Assembly (NCBI GenBank): GCA_041300525.1 | Contig: JBGLNJ010000001.1 | Coordinates: 748,854-812,853, forward strand | Direction of reading: 5' to 3' | Length of the DNA: 64,000 bases | Source: Anaerolineae bacterium | GTDB taxonomy: Bacteria; Chloroflexota; Anaerolineae; Fen-1058 | Part shown: piece by piece, positions 4,371-21,783 of the stretch | Layout: each line of letters opens with the position of its first letter | Position numbering within the stretch: position 1 is the first letter of the stretch | Notes under the pieces: generated by a model | What the model saw: the letters and a program-made list of their open reading frames with translations, nothing else | Databases searched by the model: none | Told to the model about the DNA's origin: nothing | Translations under genes and position numbers: made by a program

Positions 4371-4409
4371 TTTTCATCCTTCATCCCTCATCCTTCATCC
4401 TTGAAGGGG
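4339..4409. repeat. Inverted heptamer-array hairpin: (ATGAAGG)n ... (CATCCTT)n
   Basis: Tandem 7-nt units on the left arm and their reverse complements on the right arm, centred near 4370. Confidence 0.6.
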
Positions 4410-4413
4410 AAAC

Positions 4414-5088: not shown

Positions 5089-5133
5089 GCCGTCACGCGC
5101 CATATTCGATACTCTAACAAGGAGAGGGTTACC

Positions 5134-5949
5134 ATGTCATACTTTGAAAGCGTTCCGAACGCAGCCGACTTGAATCGCCTGCCGTCCAATCCTTTCAAGC
5201 TGCTCGACTTTAATTACCTGATTCTTTCCGAGGGTGACAAGTTCGAAGGCTCGACGGGTGACCGCGAGTTTTGCGCCGTGCTGCTGGGCGGCAGAGGGAC
5301 GTTCACAGTGAACAACCAGACGTTCGCCAACGTCGGCGGTCGGCCCAACGTCTTTTCCGGCAAGCCGCACTCGGTGTACATTCCATGCAGTTCTGACTAT
5401 ACTGTCACTGCGCATGGGCGACTGGAAGTCGGACTGGTCAGCGCGCCGAGCGATTTGAAAACGGCGCCCTATGTCATCGGGCCGGACAAAGTCACGACGG
5501 GCGTGTGGGGCGCGGCCAACTTTTCTCGCAACTTTCACCAGATCCTCACGCTGGCCGGTCAGCCCGAGTTGCCGGCCAAACGGCTCATTGTAGGAGAGAC
5601 CTACACGCCTTCTGGCAACTGGAGCACCTTTCCGCCGCACCGCCATGAAAAGGACGACCTGCCGCGCGAAGCGTATCACGAAGAGCTATATTTCTTCAAA
5701 GTCAGCCCGGCGGATGGCTTTGGCCTCACACGTTACTATAACGACGAGAGTGACACGGGCTATGTCGTCCGTGACAACACGATCTTGATGGCGCCCAAGG
5801 GCTATCACACCGTCGTCAGCGCGCCGGGCTATACGACGTACTATCTGTGGGCGCTGGCGGGCCATCACCGCGTCCAGGCAACTGCCGATGATCCCGCATT
5901 GAGCTGGGTTGGCCGCACTGTGCCGATGCTCAAAGCGTTGGGACACTAA
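5134..5949 (+). CDS. KduI/IolB-family cupin isomerase. Sequence is closest to IolB (5-deoxy-glucuronate isomerase); context suggests a 5-keto-4-deoxyuronate isomerase role.
   Basis: Matches IolB motifs SGNWS.FPPH.H..D.LP...Y.EE.Y and P.GYH.V...PGYT.YYL. Good RBS (AAGGAGAGGG). Adjacent to kduD. Confidence 0.75.
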   Translation: MSYFESVPNAADLNRLPSNPFKLLDFNYLILSEGDKFEGSTGDREFCAVLLGGRGTFTVNNQTFANVGGRPNVFSGKPHSVYIPCSSDYTVTAHGRLEVGLVSAPSDLKTAPYVIGPDKVTTGVWGAANFSRNFHQILTLAGQPELPAKRLIVGETYTPSGNWSTFPPHRHEKDDLPREAYHEELYFFKVSPADGFGLTRYYNDESDTGYVVRDNTILMAPKGYHTVVSAPGYTTYYLWALAGHHRVQATADDPALSWVGRTVPMLKALGH

Positions 5950-6002
5950 CCTGGTAACCTTCCGAACGTTCGCATACCTTTGGAAGGTTGAAGGCATAAG
6001 CC

Positions 6003-6767
6003 ATGATTCTGGATGACTTTCGATTGGATGGTCGTGTTGCGCTCGTGACGGGCGCGTCGCGAGGGCTGGGGCAAGCAATGGCTCTGGCGCTGGCTGAAGC
6101 GGGCGCCGACATTGCCGCACTGGATGTTGAAGACGTAGCACAGACTAACCAAGCTGTGACCGCTCTGGGGCGACGTTTCATGCCGGTTCAGTGCAACTTG
6201 CGGAACGCCTCGGTGGCGGAATTGCAGCAAGTTATTGAACGGGTCGTGACCGAACTGGGCCGGCTCGACATCCTGATCAACAATGCGGGCATTATCCGCC
6301 GCGCGCCGGCCATCGAGTTCAGCGAGACAGATTGGGATGATGTGTTGCAGATCAACCTAAAGGCAATGTTCTTTCTCTCGCAGGCAGTCGCAAAGGTGAT
6401 GGTCAAGCAGGGCAGCGGCAAGATCATCAACATCGCTTCGATGCTCTCATTCCAGGGCGGCATCATTGTGCCATCGTACACGGCCGCCAAGAGCGGCGTG
6501 GCAGGCATCACGCGCGCGTTGGCAAACGAATGGGCCAAACACAACATCAACGTCAACGCGATTGCGCCGGGCTACATGGCGACGGACAACACCGCCGCGT
6601 TGCGCGCCGACCCCGCCCGCGCCACATCCATACTTGACCGGATTCCGGCGGGGCGGTGGGGCACGCCGGACGATTTGAAAGGCGTGGTCGTGTTTCTTGC
6701 TTCGTCAGCCTCGGATTACATGTACGGCGCTATCGTGCCTGTGGATGGCGGCTGGCTGACGAGATGA
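6003..6767 (+). CDS. kduD: 2-dehydro-3-deoxy-D-gluconate 5-dehydrogenase (SDR family)
   Basis: Near end-to-end similarity to KduD (MIL..F.L.GKVA.VTG...GLGQ.MAL.LA.AG.DI...; IINIASMLSFQGGI.VPSYTA.KSGV; NINVNAIAPGYMAT.NT; DGGWL.R). Confidence 0.9.
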   Translation: MILDDFRLDGRVALVTGASRGLGQAMALALAEAGADIAALDVEDVAQTNQAVTALGRRFMPVQCNLRNASVAELQQVIERVVTELGRLDILINNAGIIRRAPAIEFSETDWDDVLQINLKAMFFLSQAVAKVMVKQGSGKIINIASMLSFQGGIIVPSYTAAKSGVAGITRALANEWAKHNINVNAIAPGYMATDNTAALRADPARATSILDRIPAGRWGTPDDLKGVVVFLASSASDYMYGAIVPVDGGWLTR

Positions 6768-6904
6768 GAAAATGCCCTGCGGCGACAAGTTCATGGCAGT
6801 GGGTGTTGCGGCTAGAGTGAGGCAGGCACAACAGGAGCAACGTCCGCAGTCCTGTCGGTCCTCTTGTCAGGTGAAATCTCGTCGGGCATAACGTAAGCGA
6901 TCTC

Positions 6905-6936
6905 ACCTCATCATTCGACACCCGACATTCGATGAT
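6905..6936. repeat. Heptamer-type hairpin repeat (CATTCGA-like units) abutting the comEC start
   Basis: The sequence CATCATTCGACACCCGACATTCGATGATG runs directly into the ATGATG start. Confidence 0.4.
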
Positions 6937-7763
6937 GCCACTTGTTCCCTTCACGCTAAGCTGGCTCGTTGGCATTTGGGGCGCGTCGCGCATCGCGCTG
7001 CCCACGCTTGCGCTCGGCGTTGCAGTGGGCGTGGCAATTTTCGGCCTCGTCCTCGCGTGGCGCGCGCGAAAGCTTTGCTGGATTCTTGTCCTCGCTTTGG
7101 CGGCTGTTCTTGGCGCGCTCCGTTACAACTCAGTGCAGCCTCACTTTGATCAGACCACACTTGCTACATACAACGACCAGCAAAAGCCCGTCGTCGTTGA
7201 AGGAGTCATTGTTGCCGAGCCGGATACGCGCGACACGTACACCAACCTGCGCGTCGAGGCCGACCATCTCCTCATCCTTCAGCTAAGCTCAGGACAAGTC
7301 TCCAATCTCAGCGAGGGTGTAACGCGCACGGTAAAAGGGCTCGTCCTCGTCCAAGCCCCCGCGTTCACCGATTACCACTGCGGTGACCGGCTGAGGGTGG
7401 AAGGCAAACTCCAAACCCCGACCGACTCGCCCGATTTTTCTTATCGCGAGTACCTCGCTCGACAGGGCGTCTACTCGCTCATGTCGCGCCCGCGCGTGAC
7501 GACACTCGCGCGCGATCAAGGCTTTGCTCCGCTTGGATGGCTGTACTCATTCAAGGCGCGCGCCAAGAACATTATCGCGCAAATCCTCCCTGAACCGCAG
7601 GCCTCGCTCCTCACCGGCATTTTGCTGGGCGATGATGCGGCGACTCGCCGCCGGCATTCCCAAGAGCGTGCAGGAAGCGTTTCGCACGACGGGCACCTCG
7701 CACGTGATTGCGATCAGCGGCTATAACGGAACACAAACCATGTTCACTGGACATACCCTTTAG
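6932..7763 (+). pseudogene. comEC: ComEC/Rec2 competence protein, N-terminal part only, with a frameshift (~7640) and premature end
   Basis: The frame starting at 6932 encodes a DUF4131-like N-terminal membrane/OB region up to ...LLTGILLGDDAA. The conserved continuation IPKSVQEAFRTTGTSHVIAISGYN is in another frame (ORF 7524..7763) and stops after ~25 more residues. The ~400-aa competence and metallo-beta-lactamase part is absent. Confidence 0.6.
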
Positions 7764-7769
7764 CCTGAT

Positions 7770-8279
7770 GTGCTCGCTATAGTTTTCCATAACATTCGAG
7801 GCTCCAGCTTTGTCTGGGGCCTTTTTCTTTTCTGGTCACCGGACAGCCAATGGATTGCATTTATGGACGTCAACCTCGGGCCGGATGCTCAACGTCCAAG
7901 GGCTACTCGTGTCTTTCAGCGGGAAGGGGAAGCTTCTCGCATCGTTTACCCGTTCAGCCAGTCTGTGAATGTCGGAAGGCTAGCGTGGAGACCTGATGGG
8001 CGACAAATCTTCTGCGTGTACGACGCCGAAGACAAAAAGAGGTATACACTGTTGCTCAATGCCAACGGCCAGGGCGTGGTAGAGCAGGGCATCGAAAACT
8101 CGTACCAGTTTGTTCCAAGACTTTTGGCCCCAATGGAGTGGAAAATAGCAGGGGCATTATCTAGCAGAGTAACTGCTCACCCTTGCGAGGGTAGCGTGGC
8201 TTGCCCTGCCACCTACGGTTCAAGCACGACTTGCACCTTCGCCGTCTGTCCCGATACTCCCGGCAGGTTGAACAATTGA
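7770..8279 (+). CDS. Possible fragment of a TolB/WD40-like beta-propeller protein (remnant). Low confidence.
   Basis: 169-aa ORF with SPDSQWIAF and WRPDGRQIFCV propeller-blade-like motifs. Local GC drop at 7740-7860; overlaps the 3' end of the minus-strand gene at 8213..8716. Confidence 0.2.
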   Translation: MLAIVFHNIRGSSFVWGLFLFWSPDSQWIAFMDVNLGPDAQRPRATRVFQREGEASRIVYPFSQSVNVGRLAWRPDGRQIFCVYDAEDKKRYTLLLNANGQGVVEQGIENSYQFVPRLLAPMEWKIAGALSSRVTAHPCEGSVACPATYGSSTTCTFAVCPDTPGRLNN

Positions 8280-8716
8280 CTTGCCGCTAGCAACTTGCCG
8301 CCAGCCCGATTGTAGACCAGCCAGCGGAACGGCCCTTTACCCAAATCCTGGCGATACACCCACCAGATTTTTCTGCCCTCTGCGCTCACGACCTCATCGA
8401 GCGTACCGCGCCATCCTTCGACGTCGTGCCAGTCGCCCCAGGCATCTTGCCACTGCACAACCGTCCACGCCTCTGGCCCATGCTTCAGCGTTGCCGGACC
8501 GAATCGAACCTGCAACTCTATCGCCCCCCCACCCTGCCCAACGGCAGGTAACGGGGCTCCCTGGGGCGTCTTGATCGGCGCAGGGCCGGGCGTCCAGGTA
8601 GGCGGCGGCGGTGTGGGCGTCGCAGATTGTTGAGCTGGCGTGGCTCCGGCGGCGAGCCAACTCACCGCAGCCAAGATGCAGAAATTGAGAACGAGCAAAG
8701 GCAACCACTTGCGCAT
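8213..8716 (-). CDS. Secreted hypothetical protein (signal peptide, Pro-rich linker, beta-rich domain)
   Basis: Start chosen at MRKWLPLLVLNFCILAAVSWLAAGA (signal peptide) within the longer ORF 8213..8794. Pro/Thr-rich segment TPTPPPPTWTPGPAP. Confidence 0.5.
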   Translation of the reverse strand: MRKWLPLLVLNFCILAAVSWLAAGATPAQQSATPTPPPPTWTPGPAPIKTPQGAPLPAVGQGGGAIELQVRFGPATLKHGPEAWTVVQWQDAWGDWHDVEGWRGTLDEVVSAEGRKIWWVYRQDLGKGPFRWLVYNRAGGKLLAASQLFNLPGVSGQTAKVQVVLEP

Positions 8717-8798
8717 GATGGCCTCCGATAATTCGGCACAGTCGCTTGCTGTGGGCAGACGACAAATCATCACTATGCCGAATTCTCTGGTCAAGCCG

Positions 8799-9875
8799 CT
8801 AATGCCGAATGACTAGCGGCAAATAGTTATAAACCCAAATAGGGACCGTCAACACCTTGGTCACGCTGTTCACACTATTACTGGCAGTGACGACGGCAGT
8901 ATAGCTGCCCGCAACACCATAGGCACAAGTGACCGTCGCGCCGCTGCGGATCACGCCATCGCCTAGATTCCAAATGTAGTCCACATTGCTGCCCGTGGGG
9001 ACATACGCCATGAATGTGACGATCTCGCCCGGTTGCTTGGGCCCGTTGTGACTCGCCACCAATGCCGTCGTCACTCGCACATCGTCAATGTACCACTCGT
9101 CAGCACTGTTCCCCTCATAGCGGAACGCCAGGTAGTTGGGCTGACTCGCAAAAGCGCCCAGGCTCACCGACACTTGCTCCCATGTTGATTCGGTCCCCGT
9201 CATCACCTGAGCCAATTCCACAAAGTCACCGTCTTTGGGGTCCGGGCTGCCAGTCGAGATCCATATACTGTGCCTGTAATAGTAGGGCGCGTATCGCTCG
9301 AATTGCCAAAAGACGAGTTGGCTTTCGGCGGTCGGCGTCACGCGGCGGGTGATGAGCCACGCATCTTGCATGCCAAAGGCGTCATCGTGAAACGCGCTGT
9401 AAACGCCGCGATACGCGTGAGCGCTGGCACGCTGCCAGTACACTGACGGGGTCAGGATGCTGCTCGACCAGCCCACCGGCAGCCAGGGTCCTTCAAAGCC
9501 TTCGCTCAACAGCGGAGAGGCAATCGGGATATCCACGCTGACGGTCGTCGTTTGTACGTAGGTGACGATCCCGTCGGTGGCAGTGACCATCGCCGTGTAC
9601 CGGCCTACAGTCGGGTAGGTGTGCATCACGACAAAGCCTTCCGCCAAGGTTCCATCAAAGTCCCAAGTGCAAGTGAAAACGCCCGGGACGGTCACTGTTG
9701 CAGTAAGTGTTGTGATCTCGCCCAGCGCAGTGGGGCTGCTACTGGTCACTACAAGCTCACCGCTCTGCGGCGCAGCCCGTATTTGTGGATCGCCAATGGC
9801 TTGAATGGCGAAGGACATGACCATCATCAAACCGAGAACCAGAACGATTGGCAGCACCAGTAACCAGCAGCGCAT
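8799..9875 (-). CDS. Membrane-anchored PKD - MAM-like/cleaved-adhesin-like - PKD protein; paralog of the C-terminal module of the giant protein
   Basis: Start at MRCWLLVLPIVLVLGLMM, preceded by a strong RBS (TAAGGAGGA). PKD motifs (WDFDGT, WNLGDG). Central domain EGFEG...YRGVYSAFHDDAFGMQDAWLITRRV...LAFRYEGNSADEWYIDDVRV aligns with the giant protein segment EGFEGAF...YCAFYDDLFGLQDGWLVTPRV...LAFRYEGNFSDEWCIDDVRV. Confidence 0.7.
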   Translation of the reverse strand: MRCWLLVLPIVLVLGLMMVMSFAIQAIGDPQIRAAPQSGELVVTSSSPTALGEITTLTATVTVPGVFTCTWDFDGTLAEGFVVMHTYPTVGRYTAMVTATDGIVTYVQTTTVSVDIPIASPLLSEGFEGPWLPVGWSSSILTPSVYWQRASAHAYRGVYSAFHDDAFGMQDAWLITRRVTPTAESQLVFWQFERYAPYYYRHSIWISTGSPDPKDGDFVELAQVMTGTESTWEQVSVSLGAFASQPNYLAFRYEGNSADEWYIDDVRVTTALVASHNGPKQPGEIVTFMAYVPTGSNVDYIWNLGDGVIRSGATVTCAYGVAGSYTAVVTASNSVNSVTKVLTVPIWVYNYLPLVIRH

Positions 9876-9961
9876 GGTGTCCTCCTTAGATTGTGGGGTA
9901 ACCCTCACGGAGCAGGTCGCCCGTGCAAGGGCTGGCACAAGACCTGCCCCAACACATAGCT

Positions 9962-12900
9962 TCATGGCCGAGCAGCGGCGCGAACCGAGTAGCCAATACC
10001 ACAGCCGCTCACCGAAGGATCATAGTTGACAATCCGAACGTAAAACGTGCCAATGTGATACGGATGGAACGTCAGGCGCGAAGCAGTTGTCCCTGGAGCA
10101 GCATCGTCGTTCCAATCGAGCAATCGCACACCGTCCGAATCATACAAATAGATGACCGTGTCCACACCCGACAGGTCAAAGGTCTCGACGACGTAGACCG
10201 TGTTTGTATCGGTAACCTGGAAGGTTATCCAGTCAGCATCGTTTGCTTGATGGAAGGTGTGGCGCTGGGCCGTGCCATCCGTGGCAATCACATGCGCCTG
10301 CACCCAAGTATCATCTGGCTCGTAGGTATCTGGGCAAGGTGGCGTATAGTTCTGCATGACCAACGGCAAGTAGGCCAGGCTTCTCACTGGCACAATCATC
10401 GTATCCGTGATCAGGCTCACGCTGTTGCTCACTGTGACCACGACCGTATAGTCGCCCGGCGCCACGTAGGTGTGCGTGACGACCGGGTCGGTCGCCGTTT
10501 GACCGTCGCCCAAATCCCATTGATAGATCGCGTTGGAGCCAGTGGGCAAAGTCGCCGTCATCGTCGTCGCGTGTCCGAGCGGCGTTGGCCCATCGTGTGA
10601 GAGAACCAGCCCGGACGTGACCCGCACATCGTCAATGCACCACTCGTCAGAGAAATTGCCTTCGTAGCGGAAGGCCAGATAGATAGGCCGGTTGGCATAG
10701 TCGCGCAAAGCAACGCGAACCTGTTGCCAGGTGTCTTCGAGGCCAGGTCTCAGTTCCCGGAATTCGAAAAAGCTTCCATCCTTCGGATCGTTGCTGTCCA
10801 ACGAAAGCCACAAGCTGTGCTTGCGATAGAGCGGCGAATAGTTTTCGTACTGCCAAAAGGCAAGTTCGCTCACCAACGTTGGCGTGACGCGCGGCGTGAC
10901 CAGCCAGCCATCTTGCAGCCCAAACAGATCGTCATAGAACGCGCAGTACCGGCCGCCGTGCGAGCGGGCGCCGTCGCGCCGCCACCATTCATCCTCTATG
11001 CGCCCCGTACGCAGCCAACTGGGCGGCGGGAACGCGCCTTCAAAGCCCTCAACCAACATCGGCCAGGCAACGGGAATGTCGGTGGTGATGTGCGCCGTGG
11101 CCATGAGCGTGTTGACCCTGTTGGTCGCGGTGACAATGGCAGTATAGACATTCACCGCCGTGTATACGTGCGTGACCGTTGGCCCGGTCGCCGTCGCGCC
11201 ATCACCCAACGACCACGTCAAGGCCACGTTCGTGCCCGTCGCCGTCGTCGCCGTCAGCACAGTGGTTTCGCCCAAGACCGTCGGCGCACTGGTGATCAGC
11301 GTCAAGCCAGTGACGGGTTGAACAACGAAAGTGTACAATGGCTCTGGCTCGTTATTCAACACGTCGAGGTCAACCTTGCTGGATTCGACGTAGGCTGTGT
11401 TGACCAGAACGCCGGTCGTGGTCAGTGGGACATCCGCCTGCACATTGATCGTAGTGAGGGAATTGGCGTTCAGGTTGCCCAGGTCACACTGCAGTGCGCC
11501 CACTGCTTCGACACAGCCCGGCGGCGCGGCGATCAGGTTGACTTGCGTTGGCAGGTTGACTGCCAGCGTGGCTGTCGTTGCCACGCCCGGGCCGGCATTG
11601 CTGATGACGAACGTGTAGGTGAGCGGGCGACCCGTGATCGCCGGATCGGACGAGACCGCTTGCGAAAGCGAGAGATTAGCGACCGCACTTGATTCGTACA
11701 CAGTCAGGTCGAAAGGACCCGCCTCGCGCGCGTTGCCTGCATGGTCGCGCGCCAGAATGCCCAGCATATAGTTGCCCACCACGTCAAAGCGCGCGTCGTA
11801 GATGAACGTCCATGTGTCGCCATTCAACGTGAGCGTCGGTGTGATCCAGGCGACATTCCCATCGGGCTTGCTCACGTGGATTTGAATAGACTGGGCGCCA
11901 TAGCCATCGCGGACCGTGCCACTGAGCACCAGATTCGTCGTGGCCTGGATCACGCCGGGCAGCGCGGTGGCAACGGTGATTGCAGGCGCGACCACGTCCA
12001 CTAGCAATGTGCGCGTGAGTGGCACAGGCGAGCGGTTGCCAGCGCTATCCACTCCGTAAAAGTAGAGCGTCTGCCACGTGCCGTCGCCCGTCCCAACGAT
12101 AGGCGCAGACGCGTACCAATCGCCGACGGCAGGCGTTACGCCAGGCCTCACGGCATACTGAGCACAGTCTTGCTCCGGCTCGCCGGGCCGCGATGCGCAG
12201 AGCTGCGCCCAACCTGCCTGGCGTTCATCTTGCACCTGTCCACTCAATCCCGCTTCGGCGGGGACGAGCAGATTATCTGCAAACGCCGACAGTGTGGCCG
12301 TGCTCAGGCTGATCGAAGGCGGCGCGCTGTCCACAGTGACGCGCCGTGCAGTCGTCCAATTGCTGGTGTTGCCAAAGCGATCGGCGGCCATCACGCGCAG
12401 ATCGAATTGCGTTCCATCCGCCGCGCCGCCAATGTTCCACAGGCACGACCACTGTCCATCAAACGGCATGGGGTCGAGGCACGTGAGGTAACCCGTGCTG
12501 CCCGTGCCCACATTGCGAACTTCAAGCGTGATCGTCGGTACGCCGGAAGGATCGTCCACCTTGCCGGACACGGTGTTGGTATAGGCGTTGACAAACGCCA
12601 CTGGCAATTCGATCAACGAGCCTTGCGGCGGAAGCGTGTCCACGTCGTGCTGCACCCACAGCCAATCGAATGCTCCGTGTACAGCATCGGCGACGATAGC
12701 ATCCACTTCAGCGGATTGACCGTCGAGCGCGGCGTTGACCGTCGCGGGGATGTTGAGCGTGCCGCTCACATTGTTCAACGCAAACACCTGCGGGCTGCCA
12801 CCCGCCAGTTGCACGCCGCCCCGCGCTGTCACGGTGACGCGCGCGCCAGGCGCAATCAGCACGCCCTCGTTGGTGTAGATGAGCGTGTAGGTGATCGCCT

Positions 12901-15900
12901 GGCCATTGCCCATCAGCGCCGGCTCGCCGGATGGCGTGTCCACCGGCAGCGATAAATCGAGGTCGCCGTCCAGGTTCGCATCGAGGTACTGACCGGGCGC
13001 AAGCACGCCAGGCAAATCGTGTTCGAGGTAGCCGAGTTCGACGCCGGGGGGACTGGCGACCAGGCTCACGCGCAGGTCTGCGGGCGCGAATTGGCCCTGG
13101 TTGGGGCACACGCCATTGCCGAGCGTCGCCCACTCGTACTGCTGCGTGAGCGTAAAGTTTGAGCCAGCGAACGGCAACCCGATCGGGTTGATCACGCGCG
13201 GGCTGTTGAGCGGGTTCTTGTCCGGCATCGTCGCCCACACGCGCAGCGCGGTCTCTTCACTCGCAAGCGCGACCAGTTTGAGCGAGGTGGGCGATCCCAG
13301 CCATGCGCGTGGAACGAGCAGATCGGTGTGCGGTCGTAGATACCCTTCAGGGTGCGGACGCAGGCTGGTATCAAGTGCCCAGTGAGGCGTTGTACCCAAC
13401 GCCGAGTCAATCGTTTGACTGATCCATGCGCTGCCGTTCCAGGTCAATAGTCGCGCCGTGTTTTCATCCTCGACCCACAGGGCATAGTCGGCGGCCAGTT
13501 GGCTGCCATCTTGGGCGGGCAAGGTGATGACCGGGCCAGTGCCGTATGGATCATAGGCGTGCGTCGTCCCGCCGGGCTGCGTGTCGAGATAGATAAACAG
13601 ATCGCCATCGCTGTTCCAGTTTGCCCCAACCCAGGTAAAGCGAAGCGACGCATCACTCTGTGAGGCATCGTCCCACGAGAGATACAACTGCTGGACATCC
13701 TTGAGCGACGAGTGGCTCGGCGCGGCGCGCGCGATCTCGCGATCGGCTCCGATTTGCGAGCAGCCACTCTCCATCCAGCCGTGATATTTCAGGTCAGAAA
13801 TATAGTCGGGCGTGGTGGGGACATCGGCATAGATCGGGCCGACCGTCTGCCACTGCCAGTTGCCATAGATGTCTTGCGCGATGACCTGGGCATAGCGCTG
13901 CTGCGCTTCGCCGATCCACTGTTCGTGATAGCGATTAGCGGCGGGCGCATACGAGGTCAGGCCGGTCGTCGAGGTCGAACTCGGCGTCCAGCCGACGAGA
14001 TAGTTGCCCAGGCCCGCGCCATCGCTGCTGGCCGTCCACGTGATGATGACGGTCGGTGTGTATACATCTCGAATGGTCTGACCGGGCGCAAGGGTCGTGA
14101 ACACGCCTGCGCCATTGGTATAAGCCAGCGTCACGGTGACCGGCGACGGCGGCGCAAGATCAACTGTGACCGTCCGCGTGATCTGCGTGACGTGATTTGC
14201 GGCATCACTCGCGCGAGCGGTCACGGTATAGGGCGCACCATCCGGCTCTGCGCCCAGGTACCACAGGTAACGCCACTCGCCGCGCGCATAGTTAAAAGCC
14301 GCATCGTCCCACGGGCCGCCCGCTGTCGAGACCTGCACCGCCTCCAGCCCGACGCTATCGGTGACGGTGCCGGTGAGCACGACGCGCCCAAGCGAGACCC
14401 GATGCGTCGTCGTCACAACCGTATAACCGAACGTGAGCACGGGGGCCTGGGTGTCTACCGAGATCGTGATCGGCTGCGTCTCGGTCTGCACTTGACCAGT
14501 CCAATCCGAGGCCAGCGCGAGCAACGTGTATCGCCCCTCGCCAGCGGGCGTCCAGCTTGTCGTCCACAGCGTATCCGTCACCGTGCCGCTGGGCCAACTG
14601 GTGCTGATCAAGAATGTGCTGTTGACCGTGACGGTCAGGGTGCACAGCGAATTGACGGCATACGCGCCGACGTTGAGGCTGACGGGATTGAGCGTCGTGA
14701 GCACACTTTCGTGCGTGGGCGTGAGGACAGCCGAGGCCAACGGTGGCGTGTGGCTGGGGAGTGTGCCGGTCACGGTCGTGCAGTGATCGTAGCGGTCACA
14801 CGCGTGCAGCGTCGGCGTGATCGCCTGGTGACCATTGACGATGCACGCGGGCGTCAACCGGTAAAGGCGCGGCGTGCTGGACGTGGTCTGGTTCCACCAG
14901 GCGTCGTCATAGTACTGGCGATCAGCCGCCTGCAGCGCGCACGGGAACTGGAAATTGGCGGTCGTGAGGTTCATATCCTCGACCCAACCCTGGTAGACGG
15001 TCTGGGCCGCGCTGCCATTGCCGCGATAGGTCACGGTGATCGCCGCGCGCGGCGCCAGCGTGTCAATCTCGCCGCGCCAACGATTCCACGTTGCTTGATC
15101 GTCATTACGATTGTTGCGCGTGTCCGTGCCGCGCAGGTTGATTTGATAGGCGCCCTCCAGTCCCACTGGAACCGGATGGCTCCATGTCGTCCCGGTGACG
15201 CCCTCGCCGGATTGGGCCAGCGTCGTGTTGGCCCACGCGCCCGGCGTTTGACCAGCCGGCGTGAACGCGATCTCGAGTCGCTGCACTCCGGCGGCCACGA
15301 CGCTCGGATCGGTGACGACGCCGCTCAATGAGAGTGTTTGCGTAATGGTCGTGGACGAAGGCCCGGTATAGGTCAGCACAGCCACGGGCGGCGTGGTGTC
15401 CACACCCAGCGTGAGCGGCACAGGCGCAGTCTGATTGTTCAGCCGATCGGTCGCGCGAGCGTAGAACGTATAGACGCCCGTCGGGCTGCTCAGAGCCTGG
15501 TTGTCGCTGCCAAAAGCGGGCAAGACATAGTTCACGGCCCACGTGGCGCCGGCCAACGTCGCCGTCTGCCAGCCGCTCCCGTTCGGCGTGAGCAGCGTTG
15601 CGACGCTGTGTGTGCCGACGCCACCAGTGTCGTTCACCGTGCCGCTCATCGCCACTTGCCATCGCCCGGCGGCGTTGCGTGTTGCGCCGACGATGCTGTT
15701 GTCGGGCAGCGCAAAGCTCACGGCGGGCGGTGTTCGATCAAGAACGACGGTAACCAAAGTGGCCGGCCCGACGTTGCCCACCATGTCAATCGCGCGGACG
15801 CGGAGCGTGTGCGCCCCATCGGCAAGTGGGATGTTCCAATTATATGCCCACGATTCTGCGCCGGTTGCCGCTTGCCATGGCCCGCCGTCTTGGCTGACCT

Positions 15901-16708
15901 CGACGCGAGCGACTGCCGAAGTCGAATCGCTTGCGTCGCCGCCAATCGTGAGCGTGCCCGTGACGGCCAGGTATTGCCCGTTCGTGAGTGCGGCAAAGGT
16001 CGCGGTCGGAACGTCGGCGTCCACGGTCATCAGCGTATCGGTCATCACCGAGATCGTTCCCAGCCAGGGCGGAACGTCGTCCATGAACAACTGCGCCAGG
16101 TGCAACTGTGAGTAGGACGAGGCCAGGCCATCGCATTTGGCAAAGTCGGTCGTCGTGCTGCTGCACGCGAGGCTATGGTCGGCAAGGCCCGGCGCGGAAG
16201 TGACGGCCGTAAGATCGTAGCGCGGCGCGGCTGACCCCAGGCCATCCTTGACTCGCCGGGGCGTGCCATCGGCGTTCAACGCGGCATAGCGCACGACGGA
16301 TTGCCAGCAGTCGTTGGTCGCGTTCCAACTCACCACCCATCCGCCCAAGCGCGGCTCGAAAGCGACGGCAGGCACGCCCAATCCATAGTCAGAGCCTTGC
16401 TGGCCGATGGCGCGAGCATTGCCCACCGTGTTGCTCACCACGTCCACGCTGCGCCCCATCACCGATGTGCTGGACTTGTACACGACCATGACCCGGCCCG
16501 TGATGCGATCGGCGGCAACCTGGGTATTAGTAGCAGAACTTGCCAGGGTCCGAAGACTATCGCCGACAGTGTTGCCGTTGCCATCCAGGTAAGCCATTTG
16601 GATGCTGCCCGATGTGTCGTTCTGCCACGTGACCACGTACCGATTGTTGCCTGCCCAGGCCACAGACGGATTGGTGTCGTTGCTCACGCCCCAGTTAGCC
16701 GCGTTCAA
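9962..16708 (-). CDS. Giant extracellular/cell-surface repeat protein (~2,250 aa): N-terminal beta-rich repeats, multiple bacterial Ig-like domains, DUF11 repeats, PKD, MAM-like, PKD, and a C-terminal PPC-like domain. The 5' end is uncertain.
   Basis: Continuous ORF 9962..17368. The upstream ~660 nt overlap secY and the rplO remnant on the opposite strand, so they are unlikely to be coding. Candidate starts: TTG 16708, GTG 16687, ATG 16597. Repeated VD..PP Ig-domain boundaries (LDRTPPAVSF, VDTTPPVAV, VDTQAPVLTF, VDLAPPSPV, VDSAPPSISL, VDVVAPAITV). DUF11-like segment (LTYTFVISNAGPGVATTATLAVNLP). PPC-like C-terminus (YEPDDTW...). Confidence 0.7.
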   Translation of the reverse strand: MNAANWGVSNDTNPSVAWAGNNRYVVTWQNDTSGSIQMAYLDGNGNTVGDSLRTLASSATNTQVAADRITGRVMVVYKSSTSVMGRSVDVVSNTVGNARAIGQQGSDYGLGVPAVAFEPRLGGWVVSWNATNDCWQSVVRYAALNADGTPRRVKDGLGSAAPRYDLTAVTSAPGLADHSLACSSTTTDFAKCDGLASSYSQLHLAQLFMDDVPPWLGTISVMTDTLMTVDADVPTATFAALTNGQYLAVTGTLTIGGDASDSTSAVARVEVSQDGGPWQAATGAESWAYNWNIPLADGAHTLRVRAIDMVGNVGPATLVTVVLDRTPPAVSFALPDNSIVGATRNAAGRWQVAMSGTVNDTGGVGTHSVATLLTPNGSGWQTATLAGATWAVNYVLPAFGSDNQALSSPTGVYTFYARATDRLNNQTAPVPLTLGVDTTPPVAVLTYTGPSSTTITQTLSLSGVVTDPSVVAAGVQRLEIAFTPAGQTPGAWANTTLAQSGEGVTGTTWSHPVPVGLEGAYQINLRGTDTRNNRNDDQATWNRWRGEIDTLAPRAAITVTYRGNGSAAQTVYQGWVEDMNLTTANFQFPCALQAADRQYYDDAWWNQTTSSTPRLYRLTPACIVNGHQAITPTLHACDRYDHCTTVTGTLPSHTPPLASAVLTPTHESVLTTLNPVSLNVGAYAVNSLCTLTVTVNSTFLISTSWPSGTVTDTLWTTSWTPAGEGRYTLLALASDWTGQVQTETQPITISVDTQAPVLTFGYTVVTTTHRVSLGRVVLTGTVTDSVGLEAVQVSTAGGPWDDAAFNYARGEWRYLWYLGAEPDGAPYTVTARASDAANHVTQITRTVTVDLAPPSPVTVTLAYTNGAGVFTTLAPGQTIRDVYTPTVIITWTASSDGAGLGNYLVGWTPSSTSTTGLTSYAPAANRYHEQWIGEAQQRYAQVIAQDIYGNWQWQTVGPIYADVPTTPDYISDLKYHGWMESGCSQIGADREIARAAPSHSSLKDVQQLYLSWDDASQSDASLRFTWVGANWNSDGDLFIYLDTQPGGTTHAYDPYGTGPVITLPAQDGSQLAADYALWVEDENTARLLTWNGSAWISQTIDSALGTTPHWALDTSLRPHPEGYLRPHTDLLVPRAWLGSPTSLKLVALASEETALRVWATMPDKNPLNSPRVINPIGLPFAGSNFTLTQQYEWATLGNGVCPNQGQFAPADLRVSLVASPPGVELGYLEHDLPGVLAPGQYLDANLDGDLDLSLPVDTPSGEPALMGNGQAITYTLIYTNEGVLIAPGARVTVTARGGVQLAGGSPQVFALNNVSGTLNIPATVNAALDGQSAEVDAIVADAVHGAFDWLWVQHDVDTLPPQGSLIELPVAFVNAYTNTVSGKVDDPSGVPTITLEVRNVGTGSTGYLTCLDPMPFDGQWSCLWNIGGAADGTQFDLRVMAADRFGNTSNWTTARRVTVDSAPPSISLSTATLSAFADNLLVPAEAGLSGQVQDERQAGWAQLCASRPGEPEQDCAQYAVRPGVTPAVGDWYASAPIVGTGDGTWQTLYFYGVDSAGNRSPVPLTRTLLVDVVAPAITVATALPGVIQATTNLVLSGTVRDGYGAQSIQIHVSKPDGNVAWITPTLTLNGDTWTFIYDARFDVVGNYMLGILARDHAGNAREAGPFDLTVYESSAVANLSLSQAVSSDPAITGRPLTYTFVISNAGPGVATTATLAVNLPTQVNLIAAPPGCVEAVGALQCDLGNLNANSLTTINVQADVPLTTTGVLVNTAYVESSKVDLDVLNNEPEPLYTFVVQPVTGLTLITSAPTVLGETTVLTATTATGTNVALTWSLGDGATATGPTVTHVYTAVNVYTAIVTATNRVNTLMATAHITTDIPVAWPMLVEGFEGAFPPPSWLRTGRIEDEWWRRDGARSHGGRYCAFYDDLFGLQDGWLVTPRVTPTLVSELAFWQYENYSPLYRKHSLWLSLDSNDPKDGSFFEFRELRPGLEDTWQQVRVALRDYANRPIYLAFRYEGNFSDEWCIDDVRVTSGLVLSHDGPTPLGHATTMTATLPTGSNAIYQWDLGDGQTATDPVVTHTYVAPGDYTVVVTVSNSVSLITDTMIVPVRSLAYLPLVMQNYTPPCPDTYEPDDTWVQAHVIATDGTAQRHTFHQANDADWITFQVTDTNTVYVVETFDLSGVDTVIYLYDSDGVRLLDWNDDAAPGTTASRLTFHPYHIGTFYVRIVNYDPSVSGCGIGYSVRAAARP

Positions 16709-16940
16709 GGCCGGCTCTGAGGTGACGCCGGACGTGTTGGCCGAGGTTGGATTTGTAAAGTCCGCCAAGTTGCCTGTGGTTGTTTTGGGAGGGGGCGAGT
16801 TGCCCCATGCCCTCACGGTCAAAGCGCACCGCTTTTCCAAGTCGGCCCAGCAAAAGATAAAAGCGGCCGGCGGCACAGTCGAGGTGTTGCCGTTCGAGAA
16901 AAAGCGTGGCCACTCCACGAAAGGCAGAAATAACCCATGA
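16674..16940 (+). pseudogene. rplO: Ribosomal protein L15 gene, 3' remnant only (C-terminal ~85 aa); N-terminal Gly/Arg-rich half missing
   Basis: ...VGFVKSAKLPVVVLGGGELPHALTVKAHRFSKSAQQKIKAAGGTVEVL is an L15 C-terminus. Its stop overlaps the secY ATG (ATGA). No reading frame upstream encodes the L15 N-terminus; the giant gene's 5' end lies there on the other strand. Confidence 0.6.
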
Positions 16941-18277
16941 TCCAGGCTGTTCGCAACGCCTTTAATCTGCCGGACCTGCGCCGCAAGATCCTGTACACGT
17001 TCTTGATCATGGCGATCTATCGCCTGGCTTCGCACGTGCCAGTGCCGGGCGTCAACCAGGAAGCGCTGAAGCAGTTGCTCCAGGGTGGGTCGGCGGCCGG
17101 GGGCCTCATCAATCTGCTCGATTTGCTGTCGGGTGGGGCCATCGCCAACTTTAGCGTGTTGGCGATGGGAGTGTATCCCTACATCACGGCCTCGATCATT
17201 GTTCAATTGCTGATACCCATCATCCCGTACCTGGAGAATCTGCAAAAGGAGGGCGAAGCCGGACGGAACAAGATCAACCAATTCACCGTCTATGCGACGA
17301 TCCCGCTCGCGCTTTTGCAGGCCATCGGCCAGATTCGCCTCTTGACGGCCGGCACGGGCGGCGAGCAAGTCCTGCCGAGCTTTGGCTTTACCGGCTCACA
17401 ACTCTTGCCCACGATCACCATTCTAATCACGATGACGGCCGGCACGATGTTCGCCATGTGGCTGGGGCAAATGATTGACGAGCAGGGCATCGGCAACGGC
17501 GTCTCGCTGATTATCTTTGGCGGCATTGTGTCGCGTTTGCCACAAAACATTGGCAGTTTGTTGGTGGATCCTGCCACGCGCTGGGTGTCGTTGACGGCGT
17601 TCATCCTGATCACCGTGTTCACCATTCTGGTGATTGTGTACATGCAGGAAGGCCAGCGGCGCATCCCCGTGCAGTACGGCAAGCGCGTGCGCGGGCGCAA
17701 AGTGTTCGGCGGCGGCAGCACGCACATTCCGCTGCGCATCAACACCGCGGGCATGATCCCGCTGATCTTTGCCCAGTCTATTCTGACGTTCCCGGCGGTT
17801 ATCGCGCAGTTCTTGCCGGGTGCAGGGCAAGTTGGCACGTTTGCGCACACGTTGATCGCCATGTTCAGCGGCGGGCGACGTTCGGCTGCAGGTTTTGGGG
17901 ACTGGACGGCGATTTTTTACTGGACCGTGTATTTCTTGATGGTTGTCGGTTTTACGTACTTTTACACTGACGTGATGATGCAGCAGCAAAACCTGCCGGA
18001 TAACCTGCAAAAGCAAGGCGGGTTTATTCCCGGCATTCGTCCCGGCAAACGGACGGAGGAATACATCAACGGGGTGATGCGCCGGATCACGCTGGTGGGA
18101 TCGTTGCTCCTGGGGTTTGTCGCGGTGCTGCCGTTTCTCGTCAGCCCGATCCTGCCTGGCGCGACCAGCTTTTCGTTCATGAGCACGGGCCTGTTGATCG
18201 TCGTGGGCGTGGTGATTGATACGATGCGCCAGCTTGAAGCGCAGTTACTGATGCGCCACTATGAAGGAATTTTCTAG
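16937..18277 (+). CDS. secY: Preprotein translocase subunit SecY
   Basis: 446 aa, 10-TM SecY topology and motifs (GGLINLLDLLSGGAIANFSVLAMGVYPYITASIIVQLL). Confidence 0.95.
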   Translation: MIQAVRNAFNLPDLRRKILYTFLIMAIYRLASHVPVPGVNQEALKQLLQGGSAAGGLINLLDLLSGGAIANFSVLAMGVYPYITASIIVQLLIPIIPYLENLQKEGEAGRNKINQFTVYATIPLALLQAIGQIRLLTAGTGGEQVLPSFGFTGSQLLPTITILITMTAGTMFAMWLGQMIDEQGIGNGVSLIIFGGIVSRLPQNIGSLLVDPATRWVSLTAFILITVFTILVIVYMQEGQRRIPVQYGKRVRGRKVFGGGSTHIPLRINTAGMIPLIFAQSILTFPAVIAQFLPGAGQVGTFAHTLIAMFSGGRRSAAGFGDWTAIFYWTVYFLMVVGFTYFYTDVMMQQQNLPDNLQKQGGFIPGIRPGKRTEEYINGVMRRITLVGSLLLGFVAVLPFLVSPILPGATSFSFMSTGLLIVVGVVIDTMRQLEAQLLMRHYEGIF

Positions 18278-18320
18278 TCGCGTTCATTCCCACCCTGTGG
18301 GATGGAGAAGGGAGAGGAAT

Positions 18321-19112
18321 ATGGCAGCCAAACGAACCTACCTGATCCTTTTCGGCGCGCAAGGTTCCGGCAAGGGCACACAGGCGCGGATGTTGCAAGA
18401 GTGGCTGGGTGTGCCGCAGGTGGCGACGGGCGATTTGTTCCGCGCGAACCTGGGTCAGGGCACCGAGTTGGGAAAACTTGCCAAGTCGTACATGGATCGC
18501 GGCGAGTTGGTGCCCGATAGTGTGACGGTGGCAATGGTCGAAGATCGGCTCTCACAGCCGGACGCGGCGAAAGGCGCGATTTTTGATGGCTTTCCGCGCA
18601 ACCTGGCGCAGGCTGAGGCGCTCGACGCGATGTTGGCCCAGTGGAACACGGGCATCAAGGCGGCGGTGTACATTCAGCTCGACCGCGATGACCTGATGAA
18701 GCGCATCACGGGCCGGCGCACGTGCAAGAATTGTCAGGCGGTCTATCACGTCGAGTTCACTCCGCCGAAAGTGGCTGGGGTGTGCGATGCGTGCGGCGGT
18801 GAGGTCGTTGAGCGCGCTGACGACGCAGACAAAGTTGCGGTAGCCCGCCGGTTGGATATTTACTTTGAGCAGACCACGCCGGTGATTGATCACTATCGCG
18901 GCAAAAAGCTGCTGAAAGAAGTGGATGGCAGCCTGGGCATTGAAACGGTGCAGCAGGCCATGCGAGCGGCGATCAAGCCGAAACCGGCGCGCAAGGCCAA
19001 GCCGGCAGCCAGGCCCGTCAAGAAGGTGGCCAAGAAGGTGACCAAGAAAGCATCGGTCAAGAAGGCCAAGCCTGTGAAAAAGGCTGCGACCCAGAAAGCT
19101 ACACGCAAGTAG
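18321..19112 (+). CDS. adk: Adenylate kinase (Cys4 Zn lid) with a ~45-aa Lys/Ala/Pro-rich C-terminal tail
   Basis: Start at MAAKRTYLILFGAQGSGKGTQ, preceded by RBS GGAGAAGGGAGAGG. Lid CKNCQ...CDACGG. Tail KPKPARKAKPAARPVKKVAKKVTKKASVKKAKPVKKAATQKATRK. Confidence 0.9.
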   Translation: MAAKRTYLILFGAQGSGKGTQARMLQEWLGVPQVATGDLFRANLGQGTELGKLAKSYMDRGELVPDSVTVAMVEDRLSQPDAAKGAIFDGFPRNLAQAEALDAMLAQWNTGIKAAVYIQLDRDDLMKRITGRRTCKNCQAVYHVEFTPPKVAGVCDACGGEVVERADDADKVAVARRLDIYFEQTTPVIDHYRGKKLLKEVDGSLGIETVQQAMRAAIKPKPARKAKPAARPVKKVAKKVTKKASVKKAKPVKKAATQKATRK

Positions 19113-19120
19113 GGATTGGA

Positions 19121-19151
19121 GACCTGACAGGTTTCTAAAGCCTGTCAGGTC
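19121..19151 (+). other. Perfect 11-bp stem hairpin (GACCTGACAGG-N9-CCTGTCAGGTC) between adk and map
   Basis: Read directly from the sequence. No T-run follows. Confidence 0.4.
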
Positions 19152-19163
19152 TGAACCGGTTCT

Positions 19164-19934
19164 TTGACAATGCCCGTTGTTTTGAAATCGCCCCGCGAGT
19201 TGGAGTTGATGCGCCAGGCGGGTCACATTGTGGCCGAGGTGCTGGCACTGATGGGTGAGATGGTCAGGCCCGGCGTGACAACGGCAGAGTTGAACGCCGC
19301 CGCCGATGCGCTCATCCGCAAGCGCGGCGCGGCGCCGTCGTTCAAGGGGTATCACGGCTTCCCGGCTTCGATTTGCGCGTCCGTCAATACAGAGGTCGTG
19401 CATGGCATTCCGAGCAAGAAGCGCGCGTTGCGCGAGGGCGACCTGATCAGCGTGGACGTGGGAGCGATTTACAAGGGGTACCACGGCGACGCGGCGATGA
19501 CCTACTGCGTGGGCGCGCCCACACCGGAACAGCAGCGGCTGATGGATGTGACGCAGCAAGCGCTGGGGGTGGGCATTGTCCGGGCGCGCGCGGGGAATCG
19601 GCTGTGGGATATTATCCGCGCCATCGAAACGACGGTGCACGCAGCCGGGTACGATGTGCTGCACAACTATCAGGGGCACGGCATCGGACGCGAGATGCAC
19701 GAAGACCCCGGCATCCCGAACTCGCTGTCCGATTCGCGCGGGCGGCCGCCGAACTTGCTCCTGAGGCCGGGGATCACGCTGGCGATTGAGCCGATGGTCG
19801 TGATGGGCAGCGGCGAGCCGAGAGTCCTGGGCGATAATTGGACGGTGGTTTCAGCGGATGGAACGCTCTCGGCGCATTTTGAGCACACGATCGCGATTAC
19901 GAACGGCGAAGCGGAAATCTTGACAAAGTTGTAA
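19164..19934 (+). CDS. map: Type I methionine aminopeptidase
   Basis: 256 aa with MetAP-I metal-ligand motifs (…D…D…H…E…E). The ORF starts on TTG at 19164; the ATG at 19170 is an alternative. Confidence 0.9.
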   Translation: MTMPVVLKSPRELELMRQAGHIVAEVLALMGEMVRPGVTTAELNAAADALIRKRGAAPSFKGYHGFPASICASVNTEVVHGIPSKKRALREGDLISVDVGAIYKGYHGDAAMTYCVGAPTPEQQRLMDVTQQALGVGIVRARAGNRLWDIIRAIETTVHAAGYDVLHNYQGHGIGREMHEDPGIPNSLSDSRGRPPNLLLRPGITLAIEPMVVMGSGEPRVLGDNWTVVSADGTLSAHFEHTIAITNGEAEILTKL

Positions 19935-20033
19935 GGAGTGTCGAATGTCGAGTTCCGAATGTCGAATTTGGAGTTGCACATTTCTCTCATTCGACATTCG
20001 TCAATTGACACTCGACATTCGAGGGGGGTGAGC
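19935..20033. repeat. Inverted heptamer-array hairpin (GTCGAAT/CGAATGT ... CATTCGA units) filling the map-rpmJ spacer where infA normally sits
   Basis: GTCGAATGTCGAGTTCCGAATGTCGAAT ... CATTCGACATTCGTCAATTGACACTCGACATTCG. Its translation forms the spurious N-terminal extension of the rpmJ-frame ORF. Confidence 0.6.
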
Positions 20034-20147
20034 ATGAAAGTAACAGCGTCCGTCAAAAAGCGCTGTCCCAAGTGCAAGATCGTTCGGCGCAAAGGTATCC
20101 TGCGCGTCATTTGTGAGAATCCGAAGCACAAGCAACGGCAAGGGTAG
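20034..20147 (+). CDS. rpmJ: Ribosomal protein L36
   Basis: [37 protein letters not shown] (37 aa), the canonical L36 sequence. Confidence 0.85.
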
Positions 20148-20185
20148 TGGGCGTCATTTGACGCCGACTGTAGTGGAGGAATGAC

Positions 20186-20575
20186 ATGGCACGTATCGCA
20201 GGTGTGGACCTGCCCCGCAACAAGCGGGTGGAAATCGGCCTGACCTATATTTATGGGATCGGCGTGCCGAGCAGCCAAAGGATTCTGGCGCAGGCTGGCA
20301 TCAATCCCGACACGCGCATCAAAGACCTGTCCGAGGCCGAAGTCGGTCTGTTGCGCGAGGTCATCGAGAAGCAGTATAGGGTCGAAGGCGACCTGCGCCG
20401 CGAAGTCTCGATGAACATCAAGCGCATGACGGAAATCGGATGCTATCGCGGCCTGCGTCACCGGCGCAACTTGCCGGTGCATGGGCAACGCACGCGCACC
20501 AACGCGCGCACCAAGCGAGGCGTCAAAAAGACCGTGCCAGGGCGCGGCCGACGGCGCGGAGCGAAGAAGAAGTAA
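20186..20575 (+). CDS. rpsM: Ribosomal protein S13
   Basis: [26 protein letters not shown]... Confidence 0.95.
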
Positions 20576-20587
20576 GCAGGAGGATGA

Positions 20588-20983
20588 ATGGGGCGCAGTC
20601 AACGAGTCAAGCGGACAACCAAGAAAGCCAAGCGGACCGTTTCGCACGGCCAGGCGCACGTCCACGCGACGTTCAACAACACGATTGTCACCATCACCGA
20701 TGGGCAAGGCAACGCCGTGTCCTGGGGCAGCGCGGGCATGGCCGGCTTTAAAGGCAGCCGGAAGAGCACGCCCTACGCCGCCCGGATGGCCGCGCAGTCG
20801 GCGGCCAAGACCGCGATGGACATGGGCATGATGGAAATTGACATCCTTGTCAAAGGGCCTGGCCCTGGACGCGAGCAGGCCATTCGCACATTGCAGTCCG
20901 CCGGCTTGAGGGTCACTTCGATCACCGATGTGACGCCGGTTCCGCACAACGGTTGTCGTCCGCCAAAGAAGCGAAGAGTGTAG
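20588..20983 (+). CDS. rpsK: Ribosomal protein S11
   Basis: ...[23 protein letters not shown]...; 131 aa. Confidence 0.95.
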
Positions 20984-21739: not shown

Positions 21740-21783
21740 TCCGTGCCGATGGAACTCTTTGTCATGCCAAATGGAGGCGTCAC

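Follow-up and report, generated by a model that had tools for sequence, protein, structure and literature searches.

Gene order and domain layout at the locus

The window, which is the whole 64,000-nucleotide stretch of Anaerolineae DNA analysed here, contains a long minus-strand open reading frame that terminates at 9962. At its other end, this frame abuts head-to-head a 5'-truncated rplO gene upstream of secY. Two co-oriented genes for smaller secreted proteins come after it. The features, in order of coordinate, were as follows:

8213..8716 (-): third co-oriented gene, 167-aa secreted protein
8799..9875 (-): small paralogue, 358 aa, secreted copy of the giant's head
8802-8831 (-): small paralogue, C-terminal tail YNYLPLVIRH
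8844-9047 (-): small paralogue, second PKD domain
9072-9512 (-): small paralogue, choice-of-anchor J domain
9531-9755 (-): small paralogue, first PKD domain
9795-9875 (-): small paralogue, signal/anchor helix
9881..9887 (-): Shine-Dalgarno AAGGAGG, read from the sequence, 5-nt spacer to the small-gene ATG (9875)
9962..16690 (-): giant surface-protein gene, 3' fragment of 2,242 codons plus stop
9965..10342 (-): PPC-like domain at the C-terminus, carrying two conserved Cys (YTPPC...GC), Pfam PPC, sub-threshold
10343..10372 (-): internal YLP-box-like motif and linker (YLPLVMQNYT), then PPC
10394..10591 (-): giant cassette, PKD 2, best Pfam PKD stretch (residues 2040-2105)
10619..11056 (-): giant cassette, choice-of-anchor J (MAM/cleaved-adhesin-like jelly roll), NF038128
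11069..11305 (-): giant cassette, PKD 1, Pfam PKD, aligning to the first PKD of the small protein
11348..11674 (-): DUF11 (CLIPPER) domain, Pfam PF01345 and TIGR01451
11675..16111 (-): Ig-like beta-sandwich array (Big_7/Big_13 at 15737-16009, Big_3_3 at 12299-12454)
12659-13921 (-): conserved region of about 420 aa inside the Ig-like array, no Pfam match
16109..16690 (-): repeated 'xxVAWxGxxYxVVW' blades, from alignments to P0002, L004, L005 and L086
16690..16691: sharp nucleotide boundary, join of two unrelated, mutually truncated segments
16692..16940 (+): rplO 3' remnant (ribosomal protein L15, about residues 83-158), from Pfam and tblastn with the L15 of L006
16937-18277: secY, directly downstream of the rplO remnant, SecY by Pfam

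The giant fragment was composed of known extracellular modules. The blade repeat domain, a putative type read from the sequence pattern, is severed by the join, and further blades lie upstream in relatives. The Ig-like array contained eight VDxxPP domain boundaries and matches to Big_7, Big_13 and Big_3_3, in agreement with the sequence-only reading of Ig-like domains. The conserved region without a Pfam match gave a poor AF2 model (residues 930-1395, pLDDT 52.6). DUF11 was present above the gathering score (PF01345 47.5-50.9 bits), and TIGR01451 gave 25 bits. Only one stretch passed, at residues 1679-1787 (47.5 bits), and therefore the earlier description of DUF11 repeats was not shown.

The C-terminal end was named PPC-like by the same reading. 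This assignment was not confirmed by Pfam PF04151, whose gathering score is 25.9 bits: the protein as a whole scored 17.5 bits, and its C-terminus taken alone scored 23.9 bits (E 7.9e-5). The NF038127 score was 26.8 bits against a cut-off of 29. The end is conserved in P0001, L004, L005, P0051, P0067 and L095, and precomputed PPC hits exist in P0067 and the L094 ORF.

PKD domains (PF00801, gathering score 23.5 bits) were detected in both proteins at 87.8 bits in the giant and 70.9 bits in the small protein, with two stretches in each flanking the central domain. In a BLASTP alignment spanning 319 aa, residues 1802-2120 of the giant and residues 41-358 of the small protein were 49% identical (E 6e-96), and the similarity continued through the central domain, beyond the PKD domains. 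The small gene thus re-uses the head cassette of the giant behind its own N-terminal hydrophobic signal helix, as had been proposed, and both proteins carry YLPLV. An exact look-up of the small protein's sequence found no record. The third-gene protein has a signal peptide, a Pro-rich linker and a Trp-rich domain, and gave no family match.

The join at 16690|16691 and the missing 5' part of the giant gene

The giant had been read as a complete ORF of about 2,250 aa. This did not hold, because the frame is cut at 16690 and the proposed TTG start (16708) falls antisense to the rplO remnant. In tblastn and BLASTP alignments, homology to the family begins immediately left of 16690, where the first codon aligns to residue 1987 of P0002, 1862 of P0004, 1678 of P0005 and 1856 of P0006. 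Relatives of the giant span 3,550-4,334 aa. As judged from these alignments, the 5' part of the gene, about 1,700-2,100 codons, is missing, and the fragment is the C-terminal ~55% of a membrane-anchored family of about 4,000 aa. Any annotation or model of the ORF should accordingly treat it as a fragment.

Full-length homologues contain a signal peptide and 5-7 transmembrane segments. Neither feature was found in the fragment. The N-terminal signal/anchor, TSP3 repeats and 4-5-helix block of the giant Chloroflexota envelope family are absent from the window copy because it is cut at 16690, and not because its architecture is different. Contig searches recovered no close relative (>85% identity) running through the missing 5' part. 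A search of genome contigs with the first 400 aa of the fragment returned no relatives, and a search of metagenome contigs that started from an N-terminal alignment returned distant relatives only (25-50% identity).

On the other side of the join, the rplO remnant matched Pfam Ribosomal_L27A at 60.5 bits over profile positions 18-72 of 72, and nucleotide homology to the spc operon of L006 begins sharply at 16691. An independent contig from a near-identical MAG (L092, GCA_041300535.1) maps to 16692-26497 at 99.97% and starts 1 nt from the join. Assemblies of the same population also break within these genes, namely L001 at 16603, L003 at ~12922 and L093 inside the small gene. The sequence comparisons indicate that 16690|16691 most probably marks the end of a contig or a chimeric assembly join rather than a biological junction.

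A real genomic inversion or rearrangement with breakpoints in rplO and the giant gene was weighed against this reading. It would leave a promoterless, signal-less, 5'-truncated pseudogene beside secY. The window reads in this way as it stands, with no spacer or run of N at the join, and the tetranucleotide composition is alike on both sides and does not separate them. No repeats or palindromes were found at the join. However, rplO is an essential single-copy gene that here lacks its first ~82 codons, the remainder of the spc operon is not in the window, and the contig of the 99.97%-identical population stops 1 nt from the join without crossing it. The 2,242-codon fragment also has no stop or frameshift, and its uniform dN/dS of 0.23 against a 92%-identical relative is unexpected for a dead fragment unless the event was very recent. 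A real truncation is therefore very improbable. A non-biological join at this point may touch other findings nearby.

The choice-of-anchor J head and its YLP-box-like tail

The central domain of both cassettes passed the curated cut-off of NF038128 (30 bits), with 56.3 bits in the small protein (residues 122-268) and 35.1 bits in the giant (residues 1885-2030). All 22 aligned relatives scanned were also above the cut-off. NF038128 is widespread, with 1,865 cluster representatives at E<=1e-3, and often occurs in multiple copies per protein. NF038128 proteins are secreted, multi-domain and variable in their C-terminal signals; the small protein combines an N-terminal hydrophobic helix with a YLP-type tail that scores below the YLP-box cut-off. 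In each protein here, a single J copy stands between two PKD domains, and a YLP-type tail takes the place of a classical sorting domain.

In the AF2 model (pLDDT 86), the central domain is predicted to have a MAM/cleaved-adhesin-like jelly-roll beta-sandwich fold, and it superposed on solved structures of this group. The closest structural match was a protein-binding cleaved-adhesin domain and MAM domains came next, which agrees with the PKD - MAM-like - PKD order proposed earlier and with an extracellular, adhesin-like fold rather than an intracellular one. The system compared was the cleaved-adhesin domains of Porphyromonas gingivalis gingipains and HagA (PF07675; PDB 4itc, Kgp K1). Neither central domain matched Pfam PF07675 even at E<=10, PF07675 was present in some relatives only, and a sequence search of the PDB gave no significant match to the central domain. 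Gingipains and HagA also belong to another phylum with a different envelope, and neither a protease domain nor a T9SS C-terminal domain is present in the two proteins here.

Membership in the MAM family itself (PF00629; meprin, RPTPmu, neuropilin) was rejected. The scores of 16.4 bits (small) and 14.5 bits (giant) were below the gathering score of 26.4, and the conserved Cys were absent. MAM domains have four conserved Cys, whereas the small-protein domain has none and the giant domain has two at non-equivalent positions.

Of the 139 relatives retrieved, 77 had the tail (V/I)YLPLV(L/I/V)(R/K) among their 13 C-terminal residues. Two models describe an ultrashort C-terminal motif of this type as a 'YLP-box putative sorting motif', NF050076 with a cut-off of 15 bits and NF053834 with a cut-off of 10 bits, and tails of homologues exceeded these cut-offs. 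The C-terminal tail of the small protein reached 12.3 bits with NF050076, below the cut-off, and gave no hit with NF053834. In the giant, the motif lies inside the protein, 126 residues short of the C-terminus, and matched neither model; in contrast to the YLP-box models, it is followed by NYTPPC and the PPC-like domain. A sortase-type LPXTG signal was ruled out, as no transmembrane helix or basic tail comes after the motif. To our knowledge, no sorting enzyme or mechanism is known for the YLP-box, and no relevant paper came up in a literature search on YLPLV/YLPLI, 'YLP-box' and sorting signals in Chloroflexota.

Conservation and proposed role of the cassette

A giant gene with cassette, YLP motif and PPC also has the small gene behind it in L001, L003, L004, L005, L094 and L095. 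The third gene comes next after the small gene in all of these except L005, and the order of giant, small and ~170-aa secreted protein genes was found in five to six other lineages. The window fragment has 90% aa identity to its counterpart in L001 (P0001). The flanking genes listed for the cassette differ between L005, L094 and L095, and the SDR neighbour in the window is shared only by L093, from the same population.

Within the wider family of giant Chloroflexota envelope proteins, P0002-P0007 are unnamed and showed 46-56% identity over 51-81% of the fragment. P0010 and P0012, named 'LamG-like jellyroll fold domain-containing protein' by NCBI, showed 32-33% identity over 51%. The order of the Ig-like domains and of the conserved central region is shared between the fragment and these proteins. 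The C-termini vary, with the J cassette, YLP and PPC in the window subfamily, a bare YLP tail in P0007 and P0010, and PKD plus a transmembrane anchor without the cassette in P0002 and L086. L086 has no small paralogue downstream.

The earlier reading described a partial tandem duplication of the sort typical of diversifying adhesin or S-layer-associated loci. The paralogy of the heads stands, and the copies are adjacent, co-oriented and 49% identical. However, lineages whose giants share just 43-67% identity still keep the pair, and in the tree the small proteins and the giant cassettes fell into separate clades. At the nucleotide level, the two copies showed 66% identity over 371 nt. Their longest shared word was 15 nt, and on this ground recent gene conversion between them was rejected. 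The dN/dS values were 0.23 for the giant, 0.28 for the small gene and 0.20 for the third gene, and every 250-codon window gave 0.11-0.31, so positive selection was rejected. Pfam and NCBIfam scans of the giant fragment and the small protein detected no SLH or other S-layer anchoring domain, and the proposed S-layer association was thus not supported. A recent or diversifying origin is therefore extremely improbable. The recurrence across lineages, the separate clades and the dN/dS of 0.23-0.28 argue that the duplication is old and under purifying selection. A different question is what the heads bind. They might be carbohydrate-binding modules rather than strict adhesins and serve the cell by capturing polysaccharide, with the small protein as a free or tethered glycan-binding protein. 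We consider this unlikely, since the top structural match was the protein-binding cleaved-adhesin domain and then MAM, the same scans found no glycoside hydrolase or lyase domain in the giant fragment or the small protein, and no sugar-catabolism gene was listed beside the cassette in L005, L094 or L095.

The best explanation of the whole, with a probability of roughly 0.65, is that three surface-protein genes form a conserved cassette in an uncultured Anaerolineae (Thermoflexales-like) bacterium and that the window covers its 3' end. Full-length members of the giant family begin with an N-terminal signal/anchor, bacterial TSP3 repeats and 4-5 transmembrane helices, and continue with ~2,400 beta-sandwich residues predicted to be extracellular. 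In this subfamily the protein ends in a binding head of PKD, choice-of-anchor J, PKD, the YLP-box-like motif and the PPC-like domain. From this layout we infer a surface location, a ligand, a part for the small protein and cleavage or sorting at the YLP motif, as follows. The long beta-sandwich stalk would hold the choice-of-anchor J head at a distance from the membrane. By analogy with its structural neighbours, the gingipain cleaved-adhesin, MAM and CBM modules, this head would bind a ligand, either protein or glycan. The small protein, an old paralogue of the head alone with its own signal sequence and YLP-box-like tail, would be a separately exported copy that binds the same ligand or docks homotypically to the giant's head. 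The YLP tail would serve as a sorting or retention signal, and the PPC domain after the giant's YLP motif may be a processed extension.

A stronger version of this model appears quite unlikely. In it, the triad would be a dedicated Chloroflexota surface-assembly module, the YLP box a true sorting or attachment signal without a transmembrane helix, and the giant's PPC a cleaved pro-domain, while the mini-paralogue would dock on or cap the giant's head through homotypic J contacts. The giant is otherwise an ordinary large surface protein of known modules, and a new mechanism is not demonstrated. The giant, its mini-paralogue and the small secreted protein form a reproducible synteny in Anaerolineae, and they provide a test system for the uncharacterised YLP-box and choice-of-anchor J.

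Gene models and the join at 16690|16691

The features of the locus were as follows.
9962-17368, minus: mechanical ORF of the giant surface protein, one very long reading frame
8799-9875, minus: small-protein gene, 358 aa from its real start (ATG 9875), within an ORF of 388 codons downstream of the giant ORF
9881-9887: Shine-Dalgarno AAGGAGG, with a 5-nt spacer to ATG 9875
8213-8716, minus: third gene, 167 aa, with a signal peptide, a Pro-rich linker and a Trp-rich domain of ~110 aa
from 16937: secY, followed by adk

The sequence-only reading had described the giant as a protein of about 2,250 aa starting at TTG 16708. This gene model was wrong, because homology starts in the middle of the family at 16690 and the start codon is antisense to rplO. 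In tblastn and BLASTP searches, giant-family homology began at the first codon left of 16690, corresponding to residue 1987 of P0002, 1862 of P0004, 1678 of P0005 and 1856 of P0006 among the retrieved homologues. The closest relatives have 3,550-3,880 aa (P0002, P0004-P0007 and P0010), and giants in syntenic loci reach 4,240 (L004) and 4,334 aa (L005). Full-length relatives carry an N-terminal signal/anchor and bacterial TSP3 repeats. They also have transmembrane segments at two places, one or two around residue 300 and a block of 4-5 helices at about 1,060-1,230. Signal/anchor, TSP3 repeats and transmembrane segments are all missing from the window fragment. It retains an intact frame of 2,242 codons, and the cut lies within a repeated "VAW...VVW" blade domain, away from any domain boundary.

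The remainder of the ORF up to 17368 was also rejected as coding, being antisense to rplO and secY. The mechanical ORF runs stop-free for ~680 nt here (16691-17368, minus), opposite rplO and the start of secY; this stretch is a non-coding, high-GC antisense reading frame.

On the right side, ribosomal protein L15 is represented by its C-terminal half alone, encoded in the 246 nt ahead of secY. The Pfam Ribosomal_L27A match spans positions 18-72 of a 72-position profile, and rplO enters at codon ~83 at the join. L30, S5, L18 and L6 were found nowhere in the window. The closest genome locus for this side was L006, from an Anaerolineae MAG (SecY 89% identity), whose spc operon is normal (L6-L18-S5-L30-L15-SecY). 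Its nucleotide similarity to the window covers 16691-18275 at 82% and ends abruptly at 16690|16691. Together with the giant-family homology starting at 16690, this boundary indicates that two unrelated genes, both lacking their 5' ends, abut head to head at a single base.

Such a junction could be a real rearrangement, a contig end or a chimeric assembly join. The composition of the two sides did not discriminate between these. The exact SecY protein occurs on one other record, JBFYTQ010000203.1 of GCA_041300535.1 (L092). This contig aligns to 16692-26497 of the window (9,806 nt, 3 mismatches), so its start lies 1 nt away from the join. The locus is also interrupted in other assemblies of this or a closely related population: L001 ends at 16603, L003 near 12922 and L093 inside the small gene. 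Compared with the L001 copy (92% identical), the giant fragment had an even dN/dS of 0.23 throughout, and rplO is essential. Because of the L092 start, the other breaks, the intact and constrained frame and the essentiality of rplO, a contig end or chimeric join was favored over a real rearrangement by odds of roughly nine to one. Findings spanning 16690|16691 would then be artefacts, and a flag on this non-biological join is a useful outcome.

The cassette and its paralogue

The giant and the small gene have the same orientation, with 86 nt between them. BLASTP gave 49% identity over 319 aa (E 6e-96), aligning giant residues 1802-2120, counted from 16708, with small-protein residues 41-358. 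The aligned region includes both PKD domains as well as the central domain, so the two proteins are true paralogues, with a similarity far above chance. Pfam detected two PKD stretches in each protein, and also one DUF11, Big_7, Big_13 and Big_3_3 in the giant, which has eight VDxxPP-type domain boundaries. Thus, the paralogy and domain reading proposed earlier held, and the gene model did not.

The central domain had been called MAM-like or cleaved-adhesin-like. This description held at the fold level; by sequence, the domain belongs to neither the Pfam MAM nor the Cleaved_Adhesin family. MAM matches were weak (16.4 and 14.5 bits; gathering score 26.4). NCBIfam NF038128 (choice-of-anchor J domain) scored 56.3 and 35.1 bits, both over the curated cut-off of 30, and matched 22 of 22 aligned relatives. 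The AlphaFold2 model of the small protein had a mean pLDDT of 86. The domain is widespread: among 1.84 billion cluster representatives, all of them scanned, it had 1,865 matches at E<=1e-3 and 657 at E<=1e-10, often in several copies in large proteins.

The same order, a giant with PKD, choice-of-anchor J, PKD, YLP and PPC and then a small paralogue, was found in L001, L003, L004, L005, L094 and L095. Except in L001 and L003, these giants are only 43-55% identical to the window giant over long stretches. Family members ending in PKD and a transmembrane anchor (P0002/L002 and L086) have no cassette, and L086 has no small paralogue downstream. In a neighbor-joining tree of the choice-of-anchor J and PKD2 region, four giant cassettes formed one clade and four small proteins another. 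At the nucleotide level, the window's two copies are 66% identical over 371 nt, and the longest word they have in common is 15 nt. The small gene had a dN/dS of 0.28 and the third gene one of 0.20, and the giant stayed at or below 0.31 in every 250-codon stretch. Given this recurring order, the separate clades, the diverged copies and the low dN/dS, the duplication is old and both copies are kept by purifying selection. No sign of diversification appeared in dN/dS, the tree or the copy comparison. The pair is paralogous as proposed, the duplication is neither recent nor diversifying, and the S-layer link found no support.

The YLP box and the C-terminal domain

Two homology searches returned 139 Chloroflexota-type proteins (P0001-P0139). 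In 77, the motif (V/I)YLPLV(L/I/V)(R/K) lies within the last 13 residues, with 0-5 residues after it (e.g., P0007, P0015 and P0090). In another 30 it is internal; NY(T/V)(P/A)P often comes next, and then another domain, which is either PPC-like (the giant's case) or a region starting APDLVV. Where the C-terminal motif would lie, homologous giants of other lineages have a transmembrane helix and an Arg-rich tail. The short NCBIfam models NF050076 (sort_motif_YLP) and NF053834 (ultrashort_CTERM) both describe a "YLP-box putative sorting motif". Homologues' tails clear these cut-offs; the window small-protein tail, at 12.3 bits, fell short of the required 15, and neither YLP-box model matched the internal copy in the giant. 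In the AlphaFold2 model, the small protein's final 12 residues form no secondary structure and are predicted less confidently, so the C-terminus fits a free tail rather than a PKD-fold strand. A literature search found no publication on the motif and no known sorting enzyme.

The giant's domain after the motif is PPC-like below threshold (23.9 vs 25.9 bits); the domain, including two Cys, is conserved in relatives. P0003, P0004 and P0006 carry an insertion 'RRRYPYTIYLPLVLSEAEGL...' with a YLP box in a loop (~residues 1590, 3394 and 3441), where the window protein has no insert. Their other short inserts, for example 'LRQAQGS' and 'PSTSSGHRTA', look like translated GC-rich repeats.

Neighboring genes and proposed function

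The third gene, encoding a secreted protein (~170 aa across loci), comes next in most of the syntenic loci; in L001, L003, L004, L094 and L095 it directly follows the small paralogue. Its product had no Pfam match. KDPG/KHG aldolase, KduI and short-chain dehydrogenase genes lie in a row at 4414-6767 (plus), resembling a uronate-catabolism cluster 2-4 kb from the surface-protein genes. In the related loci with flanks shown (L005, L094 and L095), the genes given beside the cassette include no uronate-type ones. At L094 1-9400, precomputed gene calls are minus-strand only; tblastn detects a member of the giant family on the plus strand at 3120-9395 and a PPC at 9572-9934. Either the gene calls of this MAG are wrong here or its giant gene carries a frameshift.

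All modules of the locus come from known, mostly uncharacterized families. The small protein, which is exported, shares a binding-type head with the extracellular portion of the giant, a membrane-anchored protein, and the two genes are conserved together. By analogy with cleaved-adhesin, MAM and CBM modules, the head may bind a protein or glycan ligand, held away from the cell by a beta-sandwich stalk. The small protein would either offer this ligand a second head, free or tethered, or be a partner docking by homotypic contact. The YLP box may be a signal for sorting or retention, and the PPC-like domain may be an extension that is processed. The conserved three-gene synteny could serve as a test of the YLP-box hypothesis.
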